IMG/VR virus record: IMGVR_UViG_3300019378_000951
Span: 32,001 to 96,000 of that record
Origin: a virus
Lineage: Duplodnaviria; Caudoviricetes
DNA length: 64,000 nucleotides
Strand: one strand, 5' to 3'
The notes beneath the pieces are model-generated. The model was not told the origin of the DNA and did no database searches. It saw only the letters and a program-made list of their open reading frames with translations. The position numbers and the translations under genes are program-made. Positions 35 through 62,910 of this stretch are shown here, piece by piece. Position 1 is the stretch's first letter, and each line of letters opens with the position of its first letter.

Positions 35-1262
35 CATAAATGTTTTAATATGATTCGCTACATCATATCACACTATATATTTCTATATAGATCAGACTAT
101 ATCTTAACTATTTCTAGTTTGCCATATTTCCATTCGCTTGAATGTACTCTACTCCCTTATTAACGGTTTCGATAGTCGTTGAACTACTTACTATTTTTTC
201 TATATATGATTCAAGATTTTTAAAACAATCATGGTGAATTCTAAAAAGTTTTATATTATTAACTTCACAATATTCATTTTTCATTTTGTCATGTAATTTC
301 AATCTCTCAAATGATTCGTCTGTATAATAAGAATCTTTTTCAAAATGCTGCTTTCCATCATACTCTATTAAATATTTTAATGAGTCGTTTTCGTTTAATA
401 TTGCAAAGTCATATCTAAGCTTATAATTGCTATTAACGGAACTTACTAAATTATCAAAAGTATATTCTCTTTGATACTTTATACACATATCCTCTAATTT
501 TTTGGCTATTCGTGTCTCTGCGATACTATTATCTTTGCAATAAGGACACCTTCTTCCTCTCCTAAACATATTAGGTGTCACTAAATATGTGTTATTACAT
601 ATTTTATGAGTTACTTCCATTTTTTCATCGATTCCAATATAATCTCCTAATATATAATCATTTAAATCTGAAAAATGTGATATTGTTTCCATATATTCTT
701 CTTTAGTATTACGTTTTTTATCCCCTCGTATATCATTAGCACATTTAGGGCATCTTTTACCATTTTTGAAATTATTATAAGTTACAGGATATTCAGTTCC
801 ACACTTATTGTGTTTTATATTAATATGTGTATCTTCATTTTTATATATTTCATTTGGTAAAACTGTATAGCCTTTTGATTCTATATCTTTAAATACTTCT
901 ACTTGATCTAACTTTAATTTTTCAGCGATGGCATTTTTAGCACATTCATGACATTTGTGCTTAGATTTTTTAAAATTATATGGAGTAGTCTTCCATCTAT
1001 AATTACAAGGTTTGTGTATAAACTCAGTTTTTGTATTTTGCCCTTTATACTCACCAATCATTTCAAAATCTTTCAATTCTTTCATATAGTTTTCAAATTC
1101 TTTACGGCTTTTTTCTTTTCTTGATTCATATATTTTCATATAACATAAACACTCCTATCTCATTATCGTATATAAGAATGTTTATTAAAAATAATAAATA
1201 GCTGCTGATTGTCCAAATTGGAGTTTCCAGCAATTAATGGCATTTTACATCACCAAAAGTCT
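35..1262 (-). mobile_element. Group I intron (phage IA-like) in the RNAP beta-C gene, carrying an endonuclease ORF
   Basis: P1 AUCGCU/GGUGAU with a U.G splice pair; core AAUUGCUGGAAA...AAUCAGCAGC...UUCAACGACUA...AAGAUAUAGUCU; ends in G; splicing restores the frame. Confidence 0.93.
114..1139 (-). CDS. Intron-encoded homing endonuclease (repeated HxxC...CxxC Zn fingers plus Vsr/EDxHD-like PD-(D/E)xK domain)
   Basis: HKPC/CHEC, HNKC/CPKC and HKIC/CPYC repeats; LRYDF...LIEYDGKQHF...HD motif; located in the intron P6 loop and reading into the core. Confidence 0.85.
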   Translation of the reverse strand: MKIYESRKEKSRKEFENYMKELKDFEMIGEYKGQNTKTEFIHKPCNYRWKTTPYNFKKSKHKCHECAKNAIAEKLKLDQVEVFKDIESKGYTVLPNEIYKNEDTHINIKHNKCGTEYPVTYNNFKNGKRCPKCANDIRGDKKRNTKEEYMETISHFSDLNDYILGDYIGIDEKMEVTHKICNNTYLVTPNMFRRGRRCPYCKDNSIAETRIAKKLEDMCIKYQREYTFDNLVSSVNSNYKLRYDFAILNENDSLKYLIEYDGKQHFEKDSYYTDESFERLKLHDKMKNEYCEVNNIKLFRIHHDCFKNLESYIEKIVSSSTTIETVNKGVEYIQANGNMAN

Positions 1263-3992: not shown

Positions 3993-4378
3993 ATCATAAA
4001 ATTTATATATGCTTTCTTTAATTCTTTATTGTCATCTTTTGATAGCCATGGGTGTATTCTATTAATATATTCGTTATAAAGATATTCTGTACTAAATATA
4101 TAATCGTCGTCGCAATCTTGATTTAGTATACAGTTTTCGTCCAATGCAAATATAGTATCATCATGATATTCAAATTTAAAATAATAAGAAATTTTTTTAA
4201 AATAATCATCATTGTCAATAGTTTGATTTTCAAATACACGCCATGCAAAACCAAATTCGTTACTATCAGTATCATATAGTATAGTTATAGCGCAATCATT
4301 TTCATTTTCGTTAAAACCTTTTATTAATATATAATACTTGTCTTTGTTGTCACATCTTTCGAAACTATCTATATGCAT
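3989..4378 (-). CDS. Hypothetical early protein (paralog family A)
   Basis: 129 aa; ILYDTDSNEFG motif; GGAGG RBS. Confidence 0.6.
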   Translation of the reverse strand: MHIDSFERCDNKDKYYILIKGFNENENDCAITILYDTDSNEFGFAWRVFENQTIDNDDYFKKISYYFKFEYHDDTIFALDENCILNQDCDDDYIFSTEYLYNEYINRIHPWLSKDDNKELKKAYINFMI

Positions 4379-39075: not shown

Positions 39076-41454
39076 ATGGCAAATTTCAAAGATGTTAAGG
39101 ATGTAGTAGTTTTAACTATATTAGCAGGTAGAGTTCCAGTTATAAAAGGTGCTCACGGGCTTGGTAAGTCTCAAATGATGGAAACTATAGTACGAGATTT
39201 AGGAATGAAACTAATAACTATAGAGGGAGGTCTTCTAAAAGAAGGAGAAATCGGGGGTCAAATGTAGGCTCGTTCACAAAGTGATTTGTGTTCCAATCTC
39301 TCTAATTGCTGGGACGTCCTTAGAGCCTATTCAACTACAACGTGATCCGCAAGGATGAGCGTGAATGTTTAAAAATGGATAGGATTGGATAATCAGCAGC
39401 GAAGCATATATACCATTATAAACCAATTAATTGCAATGGAGGTTATAATATGGCAAAGAATAAAAATGCTATTAATTGGGACGTTGATTTTATTAAAGAA
39501 AATTATAATACAATGAAGTTAGTTGAGATGGCTGAAATTCTAAGCAAAAAAGATAGTCGAATAAATGCTAAAAATCTTTCAAGACAATGTAAGAAAATGA
39601 ATCTTAGTAAACTTACAATGATTAATGATATAAAATTGAAAGATGATGAAGAATTTAAGCCAATACCAGGATTTAAAAATTATGAAGTTTCACAATATGG
39701 AAATGTTCATTGTTTAATAACAGGTTCAATTGTAGCCGATATTATTGATGGAAAAGGATATCATATAAGAAAAATTACAGATAGCAGTAATATTAAACGT
39801 GATATGCCTTTACATCGACTAATTGCACTTGCATGGATTTATAATGATGATCCTGTTAATAAAACACAAGTTGATCATATAGATGGTAATAAAGATAATA
39901 ACTCATTAAAAAATCTTGAATGGGTAACGCCTCAAGAGAATATTAATCGAGCTAGACAGAATAAATTGAATAACTCCAAACCATCAGATCATACTAGAAT
40001 GGACAAAGACACTGTTAAAAAATTGTATCTATATTGTAAAAACAATCCTGGATATACAACTAAAGACGTAAGTAAAATGTTTAAATGTAGTCAAGCAACT
40101 GTTCGCAATATAATGTCTGGTAAAAGACATGCGGACGTTACAAGAGGTTTATAATGGTATATATGAACGTTCAACGACTAGCCCGAGGGTGGTGAGACTC
40201 CACAATAGGCGTAGGGCCCAAGCTAATGGGGTGGGTGAAAATCCCTTAAATCGAAATGGGAGACTCTCATTTATATGAGATGAAGATATAGTCTACTCTA
40301 TACAGAAATGTATAGCACTTTTTAAAGTGGAATGAGTGTTGCGAACTCATTTTAATATATGGCTACCAATAGTTAAAGAAAGAAAATTCAAAAACAACAC
40401 AGGAAAAGAAGATACAACATATGTAACAGAATATGCAATACACAATAAGATGAGATTAATGAATCAGTATCTTGATGACGGAGAAGCTGTACTACTATTC
40501 ATAGACGAACTTAACAGAACTGATAATGCAGTTATGCAAGAGCTAATGAATATCATACTAAACAGAGAGATAAATGGTATAGTATTACCAGAAGGAGTAT
40601 ATGTATGTGGCGCTATGAACCCATCAGCTAATGACGGAGTTAATAACTATAGTACAAATGAACTTGACCCAGCTCAATTAGACCGTCTAACTATAATAGA
40701 AATGGATCCAGACACAACTAGTTGGTTAGATTGGGCTTTAGCAAAACCAGGCAGCTCAAGATCAGAAGACGAAATCCCTCAATATAAACGTCTTAATAAA
40801 TCTCTATATAAAACTAATATAGACGATTCAATAATAGAATTCTTATCAATGAACTCTGACTTCTTAGTAAAACAATCAGTATCATCATTAATAGGAGTAT
40901 CACCACGTTCTTGGGAAATGGCATCTGATTTAATAAGAACTTATAAGTTAAATCAAAATGCATTTAGACCTAATATACTTCAACATGCACTAGTAGGTAC
41001 TATATCACCAGAGGTTTATCAAAAGTATATCCACTTCACAGAAAGTAATAAATCTAAGTTAGTAACAGGAGACGAATTCTTATTTAGTGACAAAGTTAAG
41101 AAAGATGCAACAACTAAGAAGTATAGAAATGACCCAGAATTAGTTAAGAGATTCTTAGATGAACCAGCTAACAGACAATCTATAATGGTTAAATCAACAC
41201 TTAACATGTTAGTTGAGATAATGAACGGAAATGTAAGAGATAAAAAAGATTCATCTAAAACACTTAAATTCAATGCTAAGTTTAAAGAACTATACATTGA
41301 ATTAATGGAATATCTTCCAGCAGATAGAGTAGTTGAAGTAATGAGATATTGTAAACAAGAACATAATAAGATGCATCAAAAACTAATGGATGATGAAGCA
41401 TACTACAAAAAATTCGTAACAGAAACTCAAAGAATTAAAAAGTCAGCTAGATAA
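39076..41454 (+). CDS. MoxR/dynein-related AAA+ ATPase, spliced: exon 1 39076-39258, exon 2 40363-41454 (424 aa)
   Basis: Walker A GAHGLGKS, junction EIGG|LP, Walker B LLFIDELNR, GAMNP, LDPAQLDR, SPRSWE. Confidence 0.88.
39259..40362 (+). mobile_element. Group I intron in the AAA+ ATPase gene
   Basis: P1 GGGU/GCUC; P10 GUAG/CUAC; core AAUUGCUGGGA, AAUCAGCAGCG, UUCAACGACUA, AAGAUAUAGUCU; terminal G; splicing restores the frame. Confidence 0.92.
39450..40154 (+). CDS. Intron-encoded NUMOD4-HNH homing endonuclease
   Basis: FKPIPGF..YEVSQYG (NUMOD4); HRLIA...VDHIDGNKDNN..NLEW (HNH); C-terminal HTH. Confidence 0.9.
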   Translation: MAKNKNAINWDVDFIKENYNTMKLVEMAEILSKKDSRINAKNLSRQCKKMNLSKLTMINDIKLKDDEEFKPIPGFKNYEVSQYGNVHCLITGSIVADIIDGKGYHIRKITDSSNIKRDMPLHRLIALAWIYNDDPVNKTQVDHIDGNKDNNSLKNLEWVTPQENINRARQNKLNNSKPSDHTRMDKDTVKKLYLYCKNNPGYTTKDVSKMFKCSQATVRNIMSGKRHADVTRGL

Positions 41455-55290: not shown

Positions 55291-55317
55291 TTGATTTGTA
55301 CGAGAAAGGAGAAAATA

Positions 55318-58300
55318 ATGTTTTATTTGGATAAATTAAAAGAGAATAAGCTTTATAATAAATTTCCAATTTCGGGAATAAATGCTTCAGCTCAAGATAA
55401 GCGTAATGGAACATGTTTAATGGTTTTAGGTAAAAATCAAAATGAAACAGTTGAAGTCCTTAATGCCGGACTAGTAAGTCCTATGAATTTTAGATCTTTT
55501 TATATACCACGTAAAATAAAAACAGTTCACGCAAATAAAGTAACATTAGTTAAGCAAAAAGATTATTATGATGTTATAAAATCCAAAGCTGCAAATATAA
55601 GTTTTACATTGACAACTATAGAAGCTTATAAAGGTAAAAACTTAATATATGATATGTCTCAAGAAATTGAATTTACAAATTCTATAATAAAAGTTTCAGG
55701 AAAACGTAAATACGAGATAATGTCAAAAATGATAATGACTCGTTTATATGAACTTAAAGCTCATTATCAAAATGTAATAATATTATGTCCGATGAGTATA
55801 AACGAAGAATCATATACTAATATAAATGCTGCAAATTCAATGAGTCAATATATTTATCACATGTTACAATCTGGAATTCTTGAGGATGAAATGGTTATAA
55901 TGTTTGCACCAGCTTCAAGAATATACACATTATTTAAAGGTAATGAAAATACAGCTAATGAATCAATGAAAATAATAAGACGTTTACAAAACCGTATTAA
56001 TGGTGTTGACGAAGATTCTGAAGAAAATGCTGAAATTAAAACTGTTAATGATGATGAAGTAGTTCAAGATGTATCAGAAACTGTAGTTAATAAAGAACTT
56101 AAGCCTATATTAAATAAAATAGGCATGAAAGTTGATAAGGTTCCATCAGATTTACACCCAATGGTATCTGCTTTACAAGATATGGTACAAGAAGTAATTA
56201 AAACTAAATCAGAAGAAGAAATGGTGGAAGAGGTTCTTAATAAATCACCTGAATTCTTAGAAATGTTTAGTGAATTAGTTGAAATTAAAAAGGTTGGTAT
56301 GAACAATGCCGAAGCTATTAAGAAAACAGAACGTATACAAAAACTTAAAGAAAAACAAGGGCTGGTTCAAGTTACAGATAATTTAACAATAGCAGATATA
56401 CTAGCGGATTTTGAAGAAATTAAATTAGAACCAATAATACTTCCTGCTAGAACTATTAACAAAGAAATACAGCAATCATCAGTTAAAAACTTTGATAGTT
56501 CTTATCAAAAGAAAGTGTTAGAAAAAGATATAGCAAGTATATTTACAGCATTTAACAATGATACAGATATTAAAATATTTACAACAAGAGTTCAAAAAAC
56601 TGATAGTTCTGATGATTTATCTAATAAAGAAACATACAGTCTTACAATGGAAGACGACAGAGGTAATAAACATAATGTAACATTTGATTTGCCTAAAGTT
56701 AAAGAAGGTAAATTTATGTACTTAAACTCAGGTAAAAAACTTATACAAAAACAAATAATGCTTTTACCTATAATAAAAACGCATCCAGATAAAGTACAAG
56801 TTACATCAAATGCTAATAAATTCTTCGTTGAACGTTTTGGACAAAAAATGTCATCAAGATTAGATGCATTAAAGAGATTATGCATATCTGATGCTTTAAG
56901 AGGTTCTAATATAGAAGTTAAAAAAGGTAATGCTAAAGGAGTTAACTCTAAACTTCAAACAAACCTTGAATATTTAGACTTCTCTGATAGTGTTTCTGAA
57001 ATAAACTTTGGAGACCTTAAATTACAATTTAACTATAATTTAATAATGAATATGCTTAATCCTAATAAACCAGATTTCAATGAAAAAGTATATAATGAAT
57101 TCGGAGATAAAGATAAAGATTTTATGTTATTTGGATATTCGCGTAAAGAACTTATAATGTTCGATAGAATATCTGGAGAAGTATATAGCCAAATAAATGG
57201 TAAAAATGATAAAGTTGCAGATTCTTTATTTGATTATGTATTAGGCTTAATAAATAAATCTAACGTAGATAAAAAAGTTGTAGCTTCTATACTTAATAAA
57301 AAACCTGGTAAATCATACGCGTACAGTAGAATAGCTATAAATAGTAAACGCATGCCATTAATATGTATACTTGGTTATGAACTAGGATTATCAAAAGTTC
57401 TTGAAAGATATGAAATAAAATATAAGTTCTCTCAAGAAGTACCTAAGTATGCAGCAACTAACAAACAAGAAATAATTAGATTCTTAGATGGATATTTAAC
57501 ATATGATTCTAGCCTATTACGTAATTCATTATTATTAAATGGACTTTCTGCAGTAGGTTGTGAAGAATATAGTTTTGAAGATATGGATACTATAGAACCA
57601 TATTTAGACATGTTCTATCAATTAACTGGTTCTAGAAATGCTGGTAAAGGTATACATAATAACCTTAGTTTAATGATAGACCCGTTAACACTAGATGTAT
57701 TAAGAAAACTACATTTACCAGAAAATATATATGATATATTACTTTATTCTAATACATTACTTGAAGATGTTACATTTAAGAAAATGAATGATATGAGTAC
57801 TTATCGTATAAGGGGAGCAGAACAAATACCAGCATTAGCTTATAACTGTTTAGCTAACTATGTAAGAGAATATAAAGACAAAATACGTGCAGGAAATAAT
57901 AATGCTAGAATAAGTATGCCTAGAGATATAGTAATTAAAAAGATACTTGAGCTAGCAACAGTAGATGAATATTCTACACTTAATCCATCACTTGAAATAG
58001 AACGTAGTTCAGGTGCAACATATAAAGGTTTAAGTGGTAAAATAATGCCACCTCGCATATGTGAGTAAAACTTCTTTAATTGCTGGAAACTCCTATATGG
58101 ACAATCAGCAACCAAGCTCGAAAGAGAAGGTTCAACGACTATCGAAACCGTTAATAAGGGAGTAGAGTACCGAAAGGGAAATGGGAAGCATCAGAGATGA
58201 TGAAGATATAGTCTGAACTATATAGAAATATATAGGTAACATAATGATTAACCTTGATAGTGCATATACACCTGCTATACGTAGTTATGATAAATCAATG

Positions 58301-61300
58301 AATGGATTATTTAGTTATAGTACTCCTAAAATGGGAATTTTATTATAAACACTATTGGGAGTGTAAAACTTCTTTAATTGCTGGGAACTCCTATATGGAC
58401 AATCAGCAGCCAAGCATCTATAAGATGAAGGTTCAACGACTATCGAAACCGTTAATAAGGGAGTAGAGTACACTCAGAATGAGTGGAAATGGGAAGCACT
58501 AGAGATAGTGAAGATATAGTCTGAACTATGCAGAAATGTATAGTTAACATAAATGGATAGTGACAAAGTTGGGGTTAGAAAGACAATCTAATGGCTCCAA
58601 CTATAAAAAAGCTCTTTAATTGCTGGGACATCCCATGAGGACAATCAGCAGCTTAATTAATCTTACTTTTATTTTATAACAAATATGTATAAATAAAAGT
58701 AGGAGTGGTGAATATAAATGAATCTTAAATTAGAATTAAATGGCAGTACATATAATATAAATACTGAAAGTTATCCAGAAGGATATGGATTAAAACTATA
58801 TGAACAAGCACAGAAATTCGGATATATGTGTTATAATTATTATGAATGCATAGATGACAATACTTCATATTTGCTTATGTTTTCAAAAGCATATGGCATA
58901 ATAAAAGCTAAAGTAGATAATGAAGATATTCCTAAACTATCTAAATGTACATGGAGACCTAATTATTCTAAACGATCTCAAAAATATTACGTAGAGAATA
59001 CAGATAAAGGTAAAATGCATAGATATATAATGGGGTTTAACAAAAAAGAAGATGTAGATATAAAAATTGATCATATAGATAGAGATCCTTTAAATAATTG
59101 CAAAACTAATTTACGTAAAGTAACTCAAGCTGAAAATTGTAAAAATTCTTCATTGAGAAGTGACAATACATCTGGTATAAAAGGTATACGATATGAAAAA
59201 AGTAGAAACAGATGGTCAGCTGAAATACATGTAGATGGTAAAAAATATACTAAATGTTTTGCAGTTAGTAAGTATGGATATCAGGAGGCATTAAATTTAG
59301 CTATTGAATTTAGAAGAAAGATTGCTGAAGAAAATGGATTCATAAACCCATTTAATTAAGTTCAACGACTATCGAAACCGTTAATAAGGGAGTAGAGTAC
59401 ACGAAAGCACGTGGAAACAAGAGCCACTAGAAATAGTGAAGATATAGTCTGATCTGTATAGCAATATACAGTTAACATAAATGCGTTAGACAATTAACTT
59501 ATAACCCTAATATACTTAATACAAGAGGATTCGTAGACACAGATAGATCAGAAAATCCGGCTATAGATTATTTCGGTCCAGCTGAGCTACTTAACCCATT
59601 CACTAAATTAATTGGTGAATTAAAACTTCTTTAATTGCTGGAACCTCCTATATGGACAATCAGCAGCCAAGATAAAATAATCATCTAACAATATAAAAAT
59701 CATTTTAACAAATCTCTATTAAAAATTATTGAGAGGAGTTAACAAATGCCTAAAAAATTAACAGAACAAGAAGTTCGAGATAATATTAGTAAGATAGATA
59801 ATGGAGAATATGAATTAATAGGACATTATATAAATAGTAAAACTCCAATTAAAATAAAACATAAATGTGGACGAATAATGGAAATTCAATATGGAAAATT
59901 TACTGGAAAAAGAGCTCAAAGATGCAGATGTTTATTTGAACATCATAATAAAATGAGTCTGGATGAATTTAAAAAACGTTTATTTGAAAAACATGGGAAC
60001 AATTATGAAATTGTAAACGAAAATGAGTATGTTGATTATAATACTCCTATATATTTTATACATAAACCGTGTGGTAATAAATATAAAAGAAAACCAGATA
60101 ATGTTATTAGATGTAATACATGTGTAGAATGTAGTTATACGCAAAAATTAAGAGCTTCTAATAACACTACAAAAACATTGTCTCAAATAAAGAATGAGAT
60201 TGATAAAATAACTGAGGGATCATGCAAATTAGCATACGATATAAACTATATAAATAATAAACAAGAATTGCCAATACTTCATAAGGAATGTGGTAAAATT
60301 AGCATGATTAGTTTTAATGATATTTCAGTTAAAAATACTAGATGTAGATATTGTAGTGGAAGTAAAGGAGAACTTATAATACAAGATTATCTTGATACTA
60401 ATAATATCAAATATGAACGAGAAAAAATTTTTGATAATTTAATTGATGAAAAACATCTTAGGTTTGATTTTTATATAGAAAATTACAATCACAATCTTTT
60501 AATAGAATTTGATGGAATTCAACATTTTGAACCAACATTTGGAAAAGATGATGTTGAAAAACAAAATAGATTTGAACTAACTCAAAAGCATGATAATATG
60601 AAAAATGAATATAGCAGAATACATGATATTAATCTTTTGAGAATTCGATATGATGAAATTGACAAAATAAATAAAATATTAGATGACTATTTTTATAAGG
60701 TTCAACGACTATCGAAACCGTTAATAAGGGAGTAGAGTACACTTAACTGTGGAAATGGGAAGCACTAGAGATAGTGAAGATATAGTCTGAGCTATGCAGA
60801 AATGTATAGATTAACATAACTGAATCAACACGCAGACCCACCGAGAATTAATAACCTGGTTCTCGTTAAACTTCTTTAATTGCTGGAACACCCTACAAGG
60901 ACAATCAGCAGCCAATCCTGAAAAGGAAGGTTCAACGACTATCGAAACCATTAATAAGGGAGTAGAGTACACCAACAATGGTGGAAATGGGAAGCACTAG
61001 AAATAGTGAAGATATAGTCTGATCTGTATAGTAATATACAGCTTAACATAATGCGGAATGCAGACAACTTAATTGTTGGGTTGTCTATAAAACCCTTTTA
61101 ATTGCTGGAACACCCTATATGGACAATCAGCAGCCAATCCTGAAAAGGAAGGTTCAACGACTATCGAAACCATTAATAAGGGAGTAGAGTACCGAAAGGG
61201 AAATGGAGGGCACTAGAGATAGTGAAGATATAGTCTGAACTATGCAGAAATGTATAGATTAACATATGCAACAAAAACATATAATCCCTATAAAGAAAGC

Positions 61301-62910
61301 ATCTCGTCCATTATTTGGATCAGGGGCTGAAAAAACTTTACCGTACCTACTATCAGATGACTTCGTAGATAAAGCAGAAAAAGCAGGAGTTGTAGAAAGA
61401 ATAGATAAGAAAATTAACTTAGCTGTTCTTAAATATGATGATGGTACTAGAGGAGTAATAGATCTAGCACCAGTAATGTCTAAAAACTCAAACGGTGGGT
61501 TAAAGAAATAGCTCACATTAAACGCTTTTAATTGCTGGGATATCCTATATGGACAATCAGCAGCCAAGCTCGAAAGAGAAGGTTCAACGACTATCGAAAC
61601 CGTTAATAAGGAAGTAGAGTAAATTTCACTTTGTTATGATATTTTTGAAAAGGAGCGCATCAGAGATGATGAAGATATAGTCTGATCTATACAGCAATGT
61701 ATAGTTAACACAAATGTTTTCTTAAAAAATGAAAAGAGATTTATGCTTAATGAAGGAGATAAATTTAAGCAAGGACAAATTATAGCTAAGAATGATCAAT
61801 ATTTCTTAGGAGATAATGCTGATAATGTAACTTATTCTACAGGGCGTATGACTAAAGTTGCCGTTACAAGTGCAGATTATACCTTAATATAGGGCTTTAT
61901 ATTAGAAATAATATATCGAAATACTTTTAATTGCTGGGAAATCCTACATGGACAATCAGCAGCGAAGATATAATATCTTTAACATGTATAATTTAATAAA
62001 CAAAAAGAAAATGATATTATATAACGTTCAACGACTATCCCGATAGGGAGTAGAACCAAGCGGTTCGAAATGGAGTACATCATATATGATGTTGATATAG
62101 TCTGGTCTATATAGAAATATATAGAAGGTATGATGTAGCGAATCATATCGCAACATAAACGATGAAGATAGTTCTATGGTTACTGATGCATTAGCTGAAG
62201 ACCTTACTTCTAAAATAACTATGAAGAAAACTATCAATCTAGGAGTAAATGCAAATATAGAACAGATGGTTAAAGTTGGAGATAAGATTAAAACAGGACA
62301 ATCTTTAATGATATTCGAAGAATCATTTGAAGATGAAAGTATAAATGCATTACTTGCTACTTTAGGTGATGAGTTTAATGAGCATGTAAGAGAAAACTCT
62401 AAAAATAAACTTAAATCTAAGTATACAGGAGAAATAGTTGATATAGTTATTTATTATAATAGAGATATAAGCGAATATCAACCTTCAGTACAAAAAATAT
62501 TAAAAGATTATATTAAAGCTGAAAAACTTAAAAAGCAATTTGTTAAAACTGCAACTGGGTCTAACGATGTTAGTTCTATACGTATGAAACCAATTAACAA
62601 ACAAAAACCTGGTAAAATAAAAGGTGAAGACGTTGATGGTTTATTAATAGAAATCTATATAGAATATATGGATAAAGCTGGTGTCGGAGACAAAATTACT
62701 TTCTACACAGCATTAAAGACTATCATATCAGATGTTATACCTAAAGGACAAGAACCATATAGTGAGTATAGACCTAATGAAGACATAGATGCAGTATTTT
62801 CTCCACTATCTATAAACTCGCGTATGACTACAGATGTTTTCAATGCGATGTTTTTAGGTAAGGCACTTATAGAATTAAAAAGACAAATAAAAGATATATA
62901 TGAAAAATAA
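55318..62910 (+). CDS. RNA polymerase beta N-terminal subunit (virion-RNAP/phiKZ gp178-like), 9 exons: 55318-58038, 58247-58327, 58556-58575, 59484-59604, 60823-60848, 61054-61069, 61269-61500, 61717-61884, 62162-62910; 1377 aa
   Basis: Spliced frame is open (4134 nt). It restores the beta motifs KGLSG|IN, IRSYD..STP|DSDKVG, NPFT|NQHADPPRIGMQTT|QQKH, DYTYEDSS, GDK...K, SPLSINSRM. Confidence 0.92.
58039..58246 (+). mobile_element. Group I intron 1 (208 nt, ORF-less)
   Basis: P1 GUGGU/GCCAC; full P/Q/R/S core; terminal G. Confidence 0.93.
58328..58555 (+). mobile_element. Group I intron 2 (228 nt, ORF-less)
   Basis: P1 ACUCCU/GGGAGU; P10 CACUAUU/GAUAGUG. Confidence 0.93.
58576..59483 (+). mobile_element. 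Group I intron 3 (908 nt) with HNH-AP2 ORF
   Basis: P1 GUUGGGGU/GCUCCAAC; P10 UCUAAUG/CGUUAGA. Confidence 0.93.
58718..59359 (+). CDS. Intron-encoded HNH-AP2 homing endonuclease
   Basis: MHRYIM...IDHIDRDPLNN..NLR (HNH); NTSGIKGI...WSAEI (AP2). Confidence 0.9.
   Translation: MNLKLELNGSTYNINTESYPEGYGLKLYEQAQKFGYMCYNYYECIDDNTSYLLMFSKAYGIIKAKVDNEDIPKLSKCTWRPNYSKRSQKYYVENTDKGKMHRYIMGFNKKEDVDIKIDHIDRDPLNNCKTNLRKVTQAENCKNSSLRSDNTSGIKGIRYEKSRNRWSAEIHVDGKKYTKCFAVSKYGYQEALNLAIEFRRKIAEENGFINPFN
59605..60822 (+). mobile_element. Group I intron 4 (1218 nt) with Zn-finger/Vsr-like ORF
   Basis: P1 AUUCACU/GGUGAAU; conserved core; terminal G. Confidence 0.92.
59746..60735 (+). CDS. Intron-encoded homing endonuclease (Zn fingers plus Vsr/EDxHD-like), paralog of 114-1139
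   Basis: HKC/HKPC/HKEC...CxxC repeats; SKGE, LRFDF, IEFDGIQHF, HD motifs. Confidence 0.86.
   Translation: MPKKLTEQEVRDNISKIDNGEYELIGHYINSKTPIKIKHKCGRIMEIQYGKFTGKRAQRCRCLFEHHNKMSLDEFKKRLFEKHGNNYEIVNENEYVDYNTPIYFIHKPCGNKYKRKPDNVIRCNTCVECSYTQKLRASNNTTKTLSQIKNEIDKITEGSCKLAYDINYINNKQELPILHKECGKISMISFNDISVKNTRCRYCSGSKGELIIQDYLDTNNIKYEREKIFDNLIDEKHLRFDFYIENYNHNLLIEFDGIQHFEPTFGKDDVEKQNRFELTQKHDNMKNEYSRIHDINLLRIRYDEIDKINKILDDYFYKVQRLSKPLIRE
60849..61053 (+). mobile_element. Group I intron 5 (205 nt, ORF-less)
   Basis: P1 CGAGAAU/GUUCUCG; conserved core. Confidence 0.9.
61070..61268 (+). mobile_element. Group I intron 6 (199 nt, ORF-less)
   Basis: P1 AGACAACU/GGUUGUCU; P10 UUGUUG/CAACAA. Confidence 0.93.
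61501..61716 (+). mobile_element. Group I intron 7 (216 nt, ORF-less)
   Basis: P1 GUGGGU/GCUCAC; conserved core. Confidence 0.92.
61885..62161 (+). mobile_element. Group I intron 8 (277 nt, ORF-less, AT-rich P6 remnant)
   Basis: Short P1 CCU/GGG; conserved core; splicing gives T|YEDSS. Confidence 0.85.

Follow-up and report, generated by a model that had tools for sequence, protein, structure and literature searches.

The virion RNA polymerase gene and its exons

We analyzed a window of 64,000 nt, comprising bases 32001-96000 of a 216,390-bp IMG/VR virus record (IMGVR_UViG_3300019378_000951; 27.5% G+C; estimated to be 84% complete), with a focus on positions 58039-61716. For this span, an earlier note had described a minimal ribozyme of about 200 nt that was cloned within the genome and retargeted to new sites without an endonuclease of its own. 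Judged from its sequence, the source is an uncultivated jumbo phage of the AR9/PBS1 kind, and the span is the middle of the gene for the beta subunit of its virion RNA polymerase (RNAP). This gene is predicted to consist of nine exons separated by eight group I introns (I1-I8), with I1-I7 located within 58039-61716 and I8 in the same gene beyond it.

For the splice map, the uninterrupted beta orthologue of Listeria phage LPJP1 served as a ruler. Joining the predicted exons gives 4161 nt encoding 1386 aa without a single internal stop codon, and the product is colinear with the LPJP1 orthologue as well as with intron-free stretches of related phages. The introns fall into the region of the catalytic center, where the eight sites span 664 nt of coding sequence, and three of the exons (exons 3, 5, and 6) are micro-exons of 20, 26, and 16 nt, respectively.

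All exons lie on the plus strand. Exon 1 (55291..58038) comprises 916 codons, counted from the TTG with which the listed open reading frame (ORF) begins, and was recognized by tblastn matches to the beta subunits of AR9, PBS1, and LPJP1. Its identity to the virion beta proteins of AR9 and PBS1 is 37%, compared with 63% for the last exon, exon 9 (62162..62910), which includes Rpb2 domain 6 (Pfam PF00562, 4.3e-8). Exon 2 (58247..58327, 81 nt) is colinear with LPJP1 residues 964-990, and for micro-exon 3 (58556..58575) the frame and the spacing of DSDKVGV agree with LPJP1 and relatives. Exon 4 (59484..59604, 121 nt), exon 7 (61269..61500, 232 nt), and exon 8 (61717..61884, 168 nt) were placed by alignment with LPJP1 and relatives. 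At micro-exon 5 (60823..60848) HADPPRI agrees with LPJP1, and at micro-exon 6 (61054..61069) the frame is restored as GMQTT/QQKH, as in LPJP1 and relatives.

Group I identity and guide sequences

With the group I model RF00028 of Rfam (cut-off 50 bits), six of the introns were detected at 73-83 bits: I1 (58039-58246, 208 nt, 83.4 bits), I2 (58328-58555, 228 nt, 83.3 bits), I5 (60849-61053, 205 nt, 79.8 bits), I6 (61070-61268, 199 nt, 82.4 bits), I7 (61501-61716, 216 nt, 79.8 bits), and I8 (61885-62161, 277 nt, 73.4 bits), all encoded on the plus strand. The two remaining plus-strand introns are split by ORFs. I3 (58576-59483, 908 nt) reaches a sub-threshold 38 bits with its 3′ half alone and I4 (59605-60822, 1218 nt) has no match to the model; both carry the 5′ and 3′ blocks of the intron family described below as type A, to which I1-I7 belong. 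The five ORF-less introns of 199-228 nt which the earlier note had counted in the span are I1, I2, I5, I6, and I7.

The ORF of I3 (58718-59359) is located in the P6 loop and encodes an AP2-HNH homing endonuclease (Pfam AP2, 1.9e-13, and a weak HNH_3 match below the cut-off). I4 contains a 329-aa ORF (59746-60735) of a zinc-finger/CapR-like endonuclease group, 28-34% identical to the ORFs of three further introns of this genome, namely g206, g135, and the beta-C intron. The last of these lies on the minus strand (35..1262, 1228 nt); the bounds previously proposed for it were borne out by core motifs, Pfam matches, and splice site. Its 341-aa ORF (114-1139) is of the CapR/DUF4379 type and matches both of these Pfam families, and the exon upstream of it matches AR9 DNA adjoining an AR9 intron.

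Sequence motifs and pairing support these assignments. The motif GAAGATATAGTCTGA occurs in seven exact copies between 58202 and 61685, where 0.39 would be expected by chance, and with one mismatch at 92-106 of the minus strand within the beta-C intron. Likewise, GTTCAACGACTATC is found exactly in all eight introns of the beta gene and in the beta-C intron. Each of the eight introns is preceded by U and ends with G. The predicted P1 helix, counted with U.G pairs, comprises 5-9 bp with the own 5′ exon in I1-I7 and 3 bp in I8, while the predicted P10 with the 3′ exon has 3-7 bp in I1-I6 and 1 bp in I7. In I1, for example, the guide GCCAC pairs with the exon sequence GTGGT, and P10 is formed by TAAT/ATTA; the guides of I2, I5, I6, and I7 are GGGAGTGT, GTTCTCG, GGTTGTCT, and GCTCAC, respectively. 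Among 15 family members, compensatory double changes were found at 10 pairs in P3, P5, P8, and P9. Based on the Rfam scores, the stop-free colinear product, the P1/P10 pairing, and the compensatory changes, the predicted introns are real and correctly bounded.

Size and reach of the intron family

Within the 216-kb record, about 20 places contain the core motifs, and these were sorted by architecture into three types. Type A comprises 15 copies in at least six genes: I1-I7, the beta-C intron, and copies at about 16.8, 103.1, 132.9, 137.8, 150.6, 191.1, and 207 kb. Besides the virion beta gene, the hosts include a second RNAP beta paralogue and a beta′ gene (Rpb1 domain 2). Type B (three copies) has a long insert after P3′, and type C (two copies including I8) has a P9 extension. 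A minimal P5 and a 3′ end TTAACAnnnTG that is common across sites characterize type A. The view of one compact chassis at many sites with site-specific guides is supported. The cores had also been called nearly identical, and this is true of a block of about 42 nt and of P7′, but over P3-P9 the type A copies are 72-94% identical. With differences of 6-28% and compensatory changes in P3, P5, P8, and P9, the description as cloned is not supported.

For target statistics, 13 type A members with confidently mapped splice sites were used; g016, g103a, g103b, g135, g137a, and g072, whose splice sites were not confidently fixed, were left out. In 8 of the 13, the 5′ exon ends with GGT, while GG precedes T at 2% of the genome positions (binomial p ~3e-11), and the guides of these eight start with GCY. 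The guides of I1-I7 are each distinct and paired to their own exons, as had been claimed, but they are not wholly different in that they have this common 5′ core. Some are shared or nearly so: I1 has its target and its guide in common with g150, and a single guide base distinguishes I5 from I6.

The g150 intron (G000:C1:150549-150770, minus strand, L050) is a type A intron in the second, non-virion RNAP beta paralogue, with the target AAGTGGT and the guide GCCAC as in I1. By motif reading alone, its site is at about the same protein position (..SG/, the slash marking the intron site) as that of I1. The host protein has no blastp match to the virion beta protein; a tblastn comparison with AR9 identified it as the second RNAP beta paralogue. 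The likeness of g150 and I1 could reflect movement between paralogous sites.

A type B intron is represented at window positions 40100-40361 by its 3′ half (GTTCAACGACTAGC ... GATATAGTCTA), which follows the end of an ORF with a helix-turn-helix look. A pattern search found no 5′ half for it; probably, a further intron with an ORF lies here, the 5′ part of which has diverged.

The same intron family was also observed in the contig IMGVR_UViG_3300019378_000028 (L003:5870-6065, L004:620-835, and L035:7623-7827). Its host genes there are a family-B-like DNA polymerase gene and a beta′ gene, with one copy positioned just before GDYDGD (DxDGD motif); this copy has the target ACTCGGT and the guide GCTGAGT in common with the 137.8-kb intron (g137b). 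The contig G001, which contains an exact 40-nt core, was considered as a close relative and rejected: apart from intron and endonuclease sequence, its ORFs have no tblastn match at 1e-8, and one weak beta′ match (7e-6) connects it with the genome studied here. Since the family is present in a contig with otherwise unrelated genes, its spread was not confined to this genome. The proposed spread within the genome is not supported in view of this, of the presence of the same family in close relatives, and of the interleaving of genomes in the intron tree described next.

Clustering by lineage or by site

A maximum-likelihood tree of P3-P9 was calculated from the type A introns of this genome, four G001 introns, and I3 of an 85% identical relative (r85), together with introns of AR9, r53, and r34. 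The first three groups form a clade with support of 96/82, which includes no intron of AR9, r53, or r34 and within which members from different genomes are interleaved. Introns at the same site in the distant phages are just 55-69% identical to each other. The earlier note had suggested clustering by genome rather than by site as a check of its idea. Against AR9, r53, and r34, the introns do cluster by lineage and not by site. In approximately unbiased (AU) tests, same-site clades are rejected at the sites of I3 (p 8e-9) and I7 (p 0.03), but not at that of I1 (p 0.078). The clustering at the level of lineages implies that sequence information was transferred from site to site after the AR9 lineage had split off; gene conversion among the copies would predict it just as well.

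The orthologous gene of AR9/PBS1, g189, has 37-63% amino acid identity; its annotation joins six pieces and so contains five introns, compared with eight here. The AR9 intron A2b occupies exactly the I3 site and encodes the AP2-HNH endonuclease g190, to which the ORF product of I3 is 51% identical, although the ribozyme type differs from that of I3. A4 shares with I7 both the exact site and the guide GCTCAC, whereas the other AR9 sites are 9-12 nt away from those of the present phage. Compared with AR9, the sites of I2, I4, I5, I6, and I8 are unique or 2-12 nt off. An 11-nt exon (AAAGTTGGGGT), shorter than the 16-nt exon found here, is recognizable by sequence reading between A2a and A2b of AR9 (148500-156500, reverse-complement 4330-4340).

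AR9 contains at least about 15 introns, which are closer to each other than to same-site introns elsewhere and have AR9-specific features, namely AACTGCTGG and a GCAGTTCATAAGAG tail. Their bodies are larger (260-380 nt compared with 199-228 nt here) and have a P7-P3′ insert that is not present in the introns studied here. The blocks GTTCAACGACTA and GATATAGTC are also conserved in the introns of AR9, r53, and r34, and a P7′-P9 stretch of 35-40 nt matches records of Staphylococcus and Lactococcus phages at 95-100%.

Turnover among close relatives

Fragments of phages with 72-98% identity were collected as relatives by protein searches and a pattern scan of metagenomes; a search of the viral collection for related loci with exon 1 gave no match. 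The intron content of the relatives varies considerably. The 98% relative L032 has I6 and is devoid of I7 and I8. A 93% relative does not have I1 and contains an ORF-bearing intron 12 nt downstream, at the A1 site of AR9. In the 85% relative, I1, I2, and I4 are absent, a near-identical I3 (99-100%) is kept, and a type B intron is present 2 nt upstream of the I5 site. I2 is not present in the 53% and 34% relatives either. L006 and L036, which do not have I4, contain I3 at the same site, with core blocks that are 99-100% identical and an ORF product that is 99% identical at the amino acid level.

Alternative occupation of neighboring sites was seen in two places. Three sites within 8 nt of the HADPPRI codons hold different introns in different phages (L036:2470-2814, L033:272-560, and L008:13182-13530), and in GLSG/INLD/ the alternative sites of different phages are 12 nt apart. 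An insertion may abolish the homing site of its neighbor, which would make the two mutually exclusive.

The architecture of I8 is like that of the same-site intron of an approximately 77% identical relative (L034:1804-2062). Unlike I1-I7, I8 looks inherited by site. In L041 (210-427) and L040, a type A intron is inserted into the beta′ catalytic motif DFDG/D, a site that is empty in the genome studied here (~206395); conversely, L041 is without the intron that this genome has at 206785-207988.

Endonuclease loss, possible co-conversion, and probable recombination

An allele of I7 with a 340-aa ORF is present in the relatives L045 (319-1480) and L049. The encoded protein has a DUF4379/CapR zinc finger and a weak DUF559 match and is of a zinc-finger/Vsr-like kind. 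The ribozyme parts of I7 are 97% identical between the window and these two relatives, in which the ORF extends with its last codons across P8 and into P7′. As the P7.1 region of the ORF-less I7 corresponds to both flanks of the L045/L049 insert, including the last codons of the ORF, this intron is a deletion derivative with an endonuclease ORF remnant. The deletion seems to have taken place between short repeats (TTCACnTTAT). At the g132 site, the relative L042 has the same P1-P3 module in front of a P5-extended, ORF-bearing body that is 76% identical. A spread of the ribozyme without its own endonuclease, as had been assumed, is at variance with the origin of I7 from an ORF-bearing allele and with the ORF-bearing allele at the g132 site.

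Comparison with the 85% relative r85, in which I1 and I2 are absent, showed that synonymous differences cluster exactly at the two insertion sites, where 9 of 18 positions (I1) and 7 of 15 positions (I2) are changed. The patches include three serine codons with an AGT/TCA exchange; between the two sites there is almost no difference, and the stretch is otherwise ~95-100% identical. Co-conversion from a divergent donor at the DNA level would leave such patches in this one pairwise comparison.

Peripheral hairpins recur in varied combinations among the copies. The P6 of I1 equals that of I7 and g150, and the P6 of I5 equals that of I6, while P8-P9 of I2 is found again in I4 and I6 and the P9 of I3 in I5 and g206. 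I6 is a mosaic of an I5-like 5′ two-thirds, which extends to P7.1, and an I4/I2-like P8-P9. Among phages of moderate divergence, introns at the same site resemble each other no more than paralogues do, with 88-89% identity at the g137b and g191 sites. The 5′ guide modules are conserved while the bodies differ at the sites of I7/A4, g191/L037, and g132/L042. The four CapR-like endonucleases of the genome are 28-34% identical to each other, whereas their ribozymes are 78-84% identical. Since these ORFs are far more diverged than the intron bodies, and since the endonucleases of I3 and AR9 are akin across different ribozyme types, the bodies on the one hand and the guide and ORF modules on the other have had partly separate histories.

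Evaluation of possible explanations

The explanation that we favor, with clear reservations, is that the introns are ordinary mobile introns acting at the DNA level, with a shared type A chassis shaped by endonuclease loss, hitch-hiking with neighbors, and recombination among copies. I1-I7 would belong to a lineage-specific family of compact type A introns, in which a common P3-P9 body is combined with a short 5′ guide forming P1/P10 for each site. Some copies would be mobilized by the homing endonuclease genes they carry, AP2-HNH in I3 and zinc-finger/Vsr-like in both I4 and the beta-C intron. Between closely related phages, copies are gained and lost. From some copies, the endonuclease genes would then be deleted, as shown for I7. 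ORF-less copies would probably ride within the co-conversion range of endonuclease-bearing neighbors, a step that we infer from the arrangement. The common chassis would result from shared descent, strong constraint on the ~42-nt core, and recombination between copies, which would swap modules of the body and leave the site-specific 5′ guide in place. Colonization of new sites must have happened in the history of the family, and exons ending with GGU seem to have been favored. It is not placeable in this genome, and nothing shows an endonuclease-free or RNA route.

Several points weigh against this explanation. I1, I2, I5, and I6 contain no endonuclease remnants, and their ORF-less state may therefore be the original one. 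The synonymous changes next to I1 and I2 also improve P1/P10 pairing, and selection after insertion could explain part of them. The permutation test for the mosaic structure of I6 (max-chi-square, p 0.004) treats paired stem positions as independent and overstates the significance. Finally, the identity plateau of about 80-88% could be caused partly by saturation at a few variable sites and not by exchange.

A tentative possibility is a recombining pool, in which a catalytic body of about 150 nt is exchanged by gene conversion among the ~15 copies and those of co-infecting phages, while the 5′ guide module (P1-P2-P3) stays fixed and exons ending with GGU are seeded preferentially. If true, a ~200-nt ribozyme would be retargeted here in a natural and modular way, and guide-dependent ectopic spread in protein-coding genes would have its densest case so far.

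We regard it as unlikely that a minimal ribozyme was copied within the genome without an endonuclease, by reverse splicing or illegitimate recombination followed by guide replacement. Related introns with different guides at many non-homologous sites, clustering by lineage instead of site, the enrichment of GGT targets (8 of 13 compared with 2%), and the shared or nearly shared guides of I1/g150, I5/I6, and g137b with the intron of another phage would fit this process, as would the four introns without an endonuclease remnant. Yet the copies, at 72-94% identity, are not recent clones, I7 formerly had an endonuclease, and the occurrence of the family in other phages means that donors need not have been in this genome. 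The step of reverse splicing, in particular, is opposed by three results. First, a search of the 216-kb record (84% complete) for reverse transcriptase (PF00078) gave no match; an enzyme of the host could supply this activity. Second, next to I1 and I2 the exons show many synonymous differences from the alleles without intron and look co-converted, whereas RNA-level insertion by reverse splicing is expected to leave the flanks unchanged. Third, introns with more similar bodies do not have more similar targets (Mantel r -0.23, p 0.99, 19 introns; r -0.24 for the 13 own copies only). The idea that the closest introns share targets, which the pairs I5/I6, I1/g150, g132/g191, and g137b/G1_107k had suggested, was dropped on the basis of the same Mantel result.

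Pure concerted evolution, with ancient stable sites homogenized by gene conversion alone and no new sites since the split from the AR9 lineage, appears rather more doubtful still. It would account for the I3 and I7 sites, which are common with AR9 and hold bodies like those of their genome-mates, for the mosaic bodies, and for the guide modules that are conserved at I7/A4, g191/L037, and g132/L042 despite differing bodies. With stable sites, however, it is difficult to reconcile the absence of I1, I2, I4, I7, and I8 from relatives with 85-98% identity, the alternative occupation of sites 2-12 nt apart in different phages, and the presence of the family in different genes of an otherwise unrelated contig.

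Old, independent site-specific lineages without any exchange, whose similarity would reflect functional constraint on a common phage intron core, are highly improbable: the conservation of GTTCAACGACTA/GATATAGTC in AR9, r53, and r34, the P7′-P9 matches to Staphylococcus and Lactococcus phages, and the low identity of the four CapR-like endonucleases agree with such a history, but the lineage-specific architecture and tails across sites (minimal P5 and TTAACAnnnTG here, GCAGTTCATAAGAG in AR9), the supported type A clade with rejection of same-site clades, and the identical peripheral hairpins in different combinations among copies do not.

Relation to known systems and significance

In T4 (td, nrdB, and nrdD) and in Staphylococcus phage Twort (three introns in orf142, two in nrdE), related IA-type introns occupy different sites, some of them in one gene. 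Endonuclease ORFs are present only in some of these introns, and exon skipping is possible between tandem introns. In comparison, the phage studied here has far more copies (about 15-20 per genome and eight per gene), exons as short as 16 nt, and smaller bodies. Eight introns are crowded into about 4 kb of the beta gene, with three exons as short as 16, 20, and 26 nt and with ribozymes that are complete at 199-208 nt; to our knowledge, this may be among the densest packings of group I introns described in a phage gene. As the same gene of AR9 already has five introns, it represents an unusually dense case of a known kind. The Azoarcus pre-tRNA-Ile intron (~205 nt) is of similar size and likewise adds few peripheral elements to a complete catalytic core, but the likeness is in size only: its host is a tRNA and not a phage mRNA, and the core of the introns described here is phage IA-like, as in AR9 and, in part, in the Staphylococcus and Lactococcus phage records. 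Twort orf142 and its exon skipping are mentioned in the literature (PMC11878797).

For spread by reverse splicing, short complementarity between guide and target has been described as the sole requirement (PMC1299323; PMC3984707), and according to reviews, transposition by this route is proposed and not proven (PMC3984707; PMC1299323). The introns described here resemble this model in that related introns are found at different sites, and differ from it in the protein-coding targets, the lack of a detected reverse transcriptase, and flanks that look co-converted. In collaborative (trans) homing, endonucleases encoded elsewhere mobilize ORF-less introns, and endonuclease genes invade introns and then decay (PMC3984707). 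The pair of I7 alleles with and without ORF would fit such a cycle of endonuclease gain and loss.

Current views are not overturned by these results; with regard to ectopic spread, the locus adds circumstantial material and no proof. Compact ribozymes with naturally varied guides are also possible material for RNA engineering. Among the metagenome relatives, alleles that have or lack each intron, and that have or lack the endonuclease gene, form a natural series. Thereby, tests become accessible on the persistence and movement of ORF-less introns, on the role of the guide in the choice of sites, and on how tandem ribozymes avoid exon skipping.

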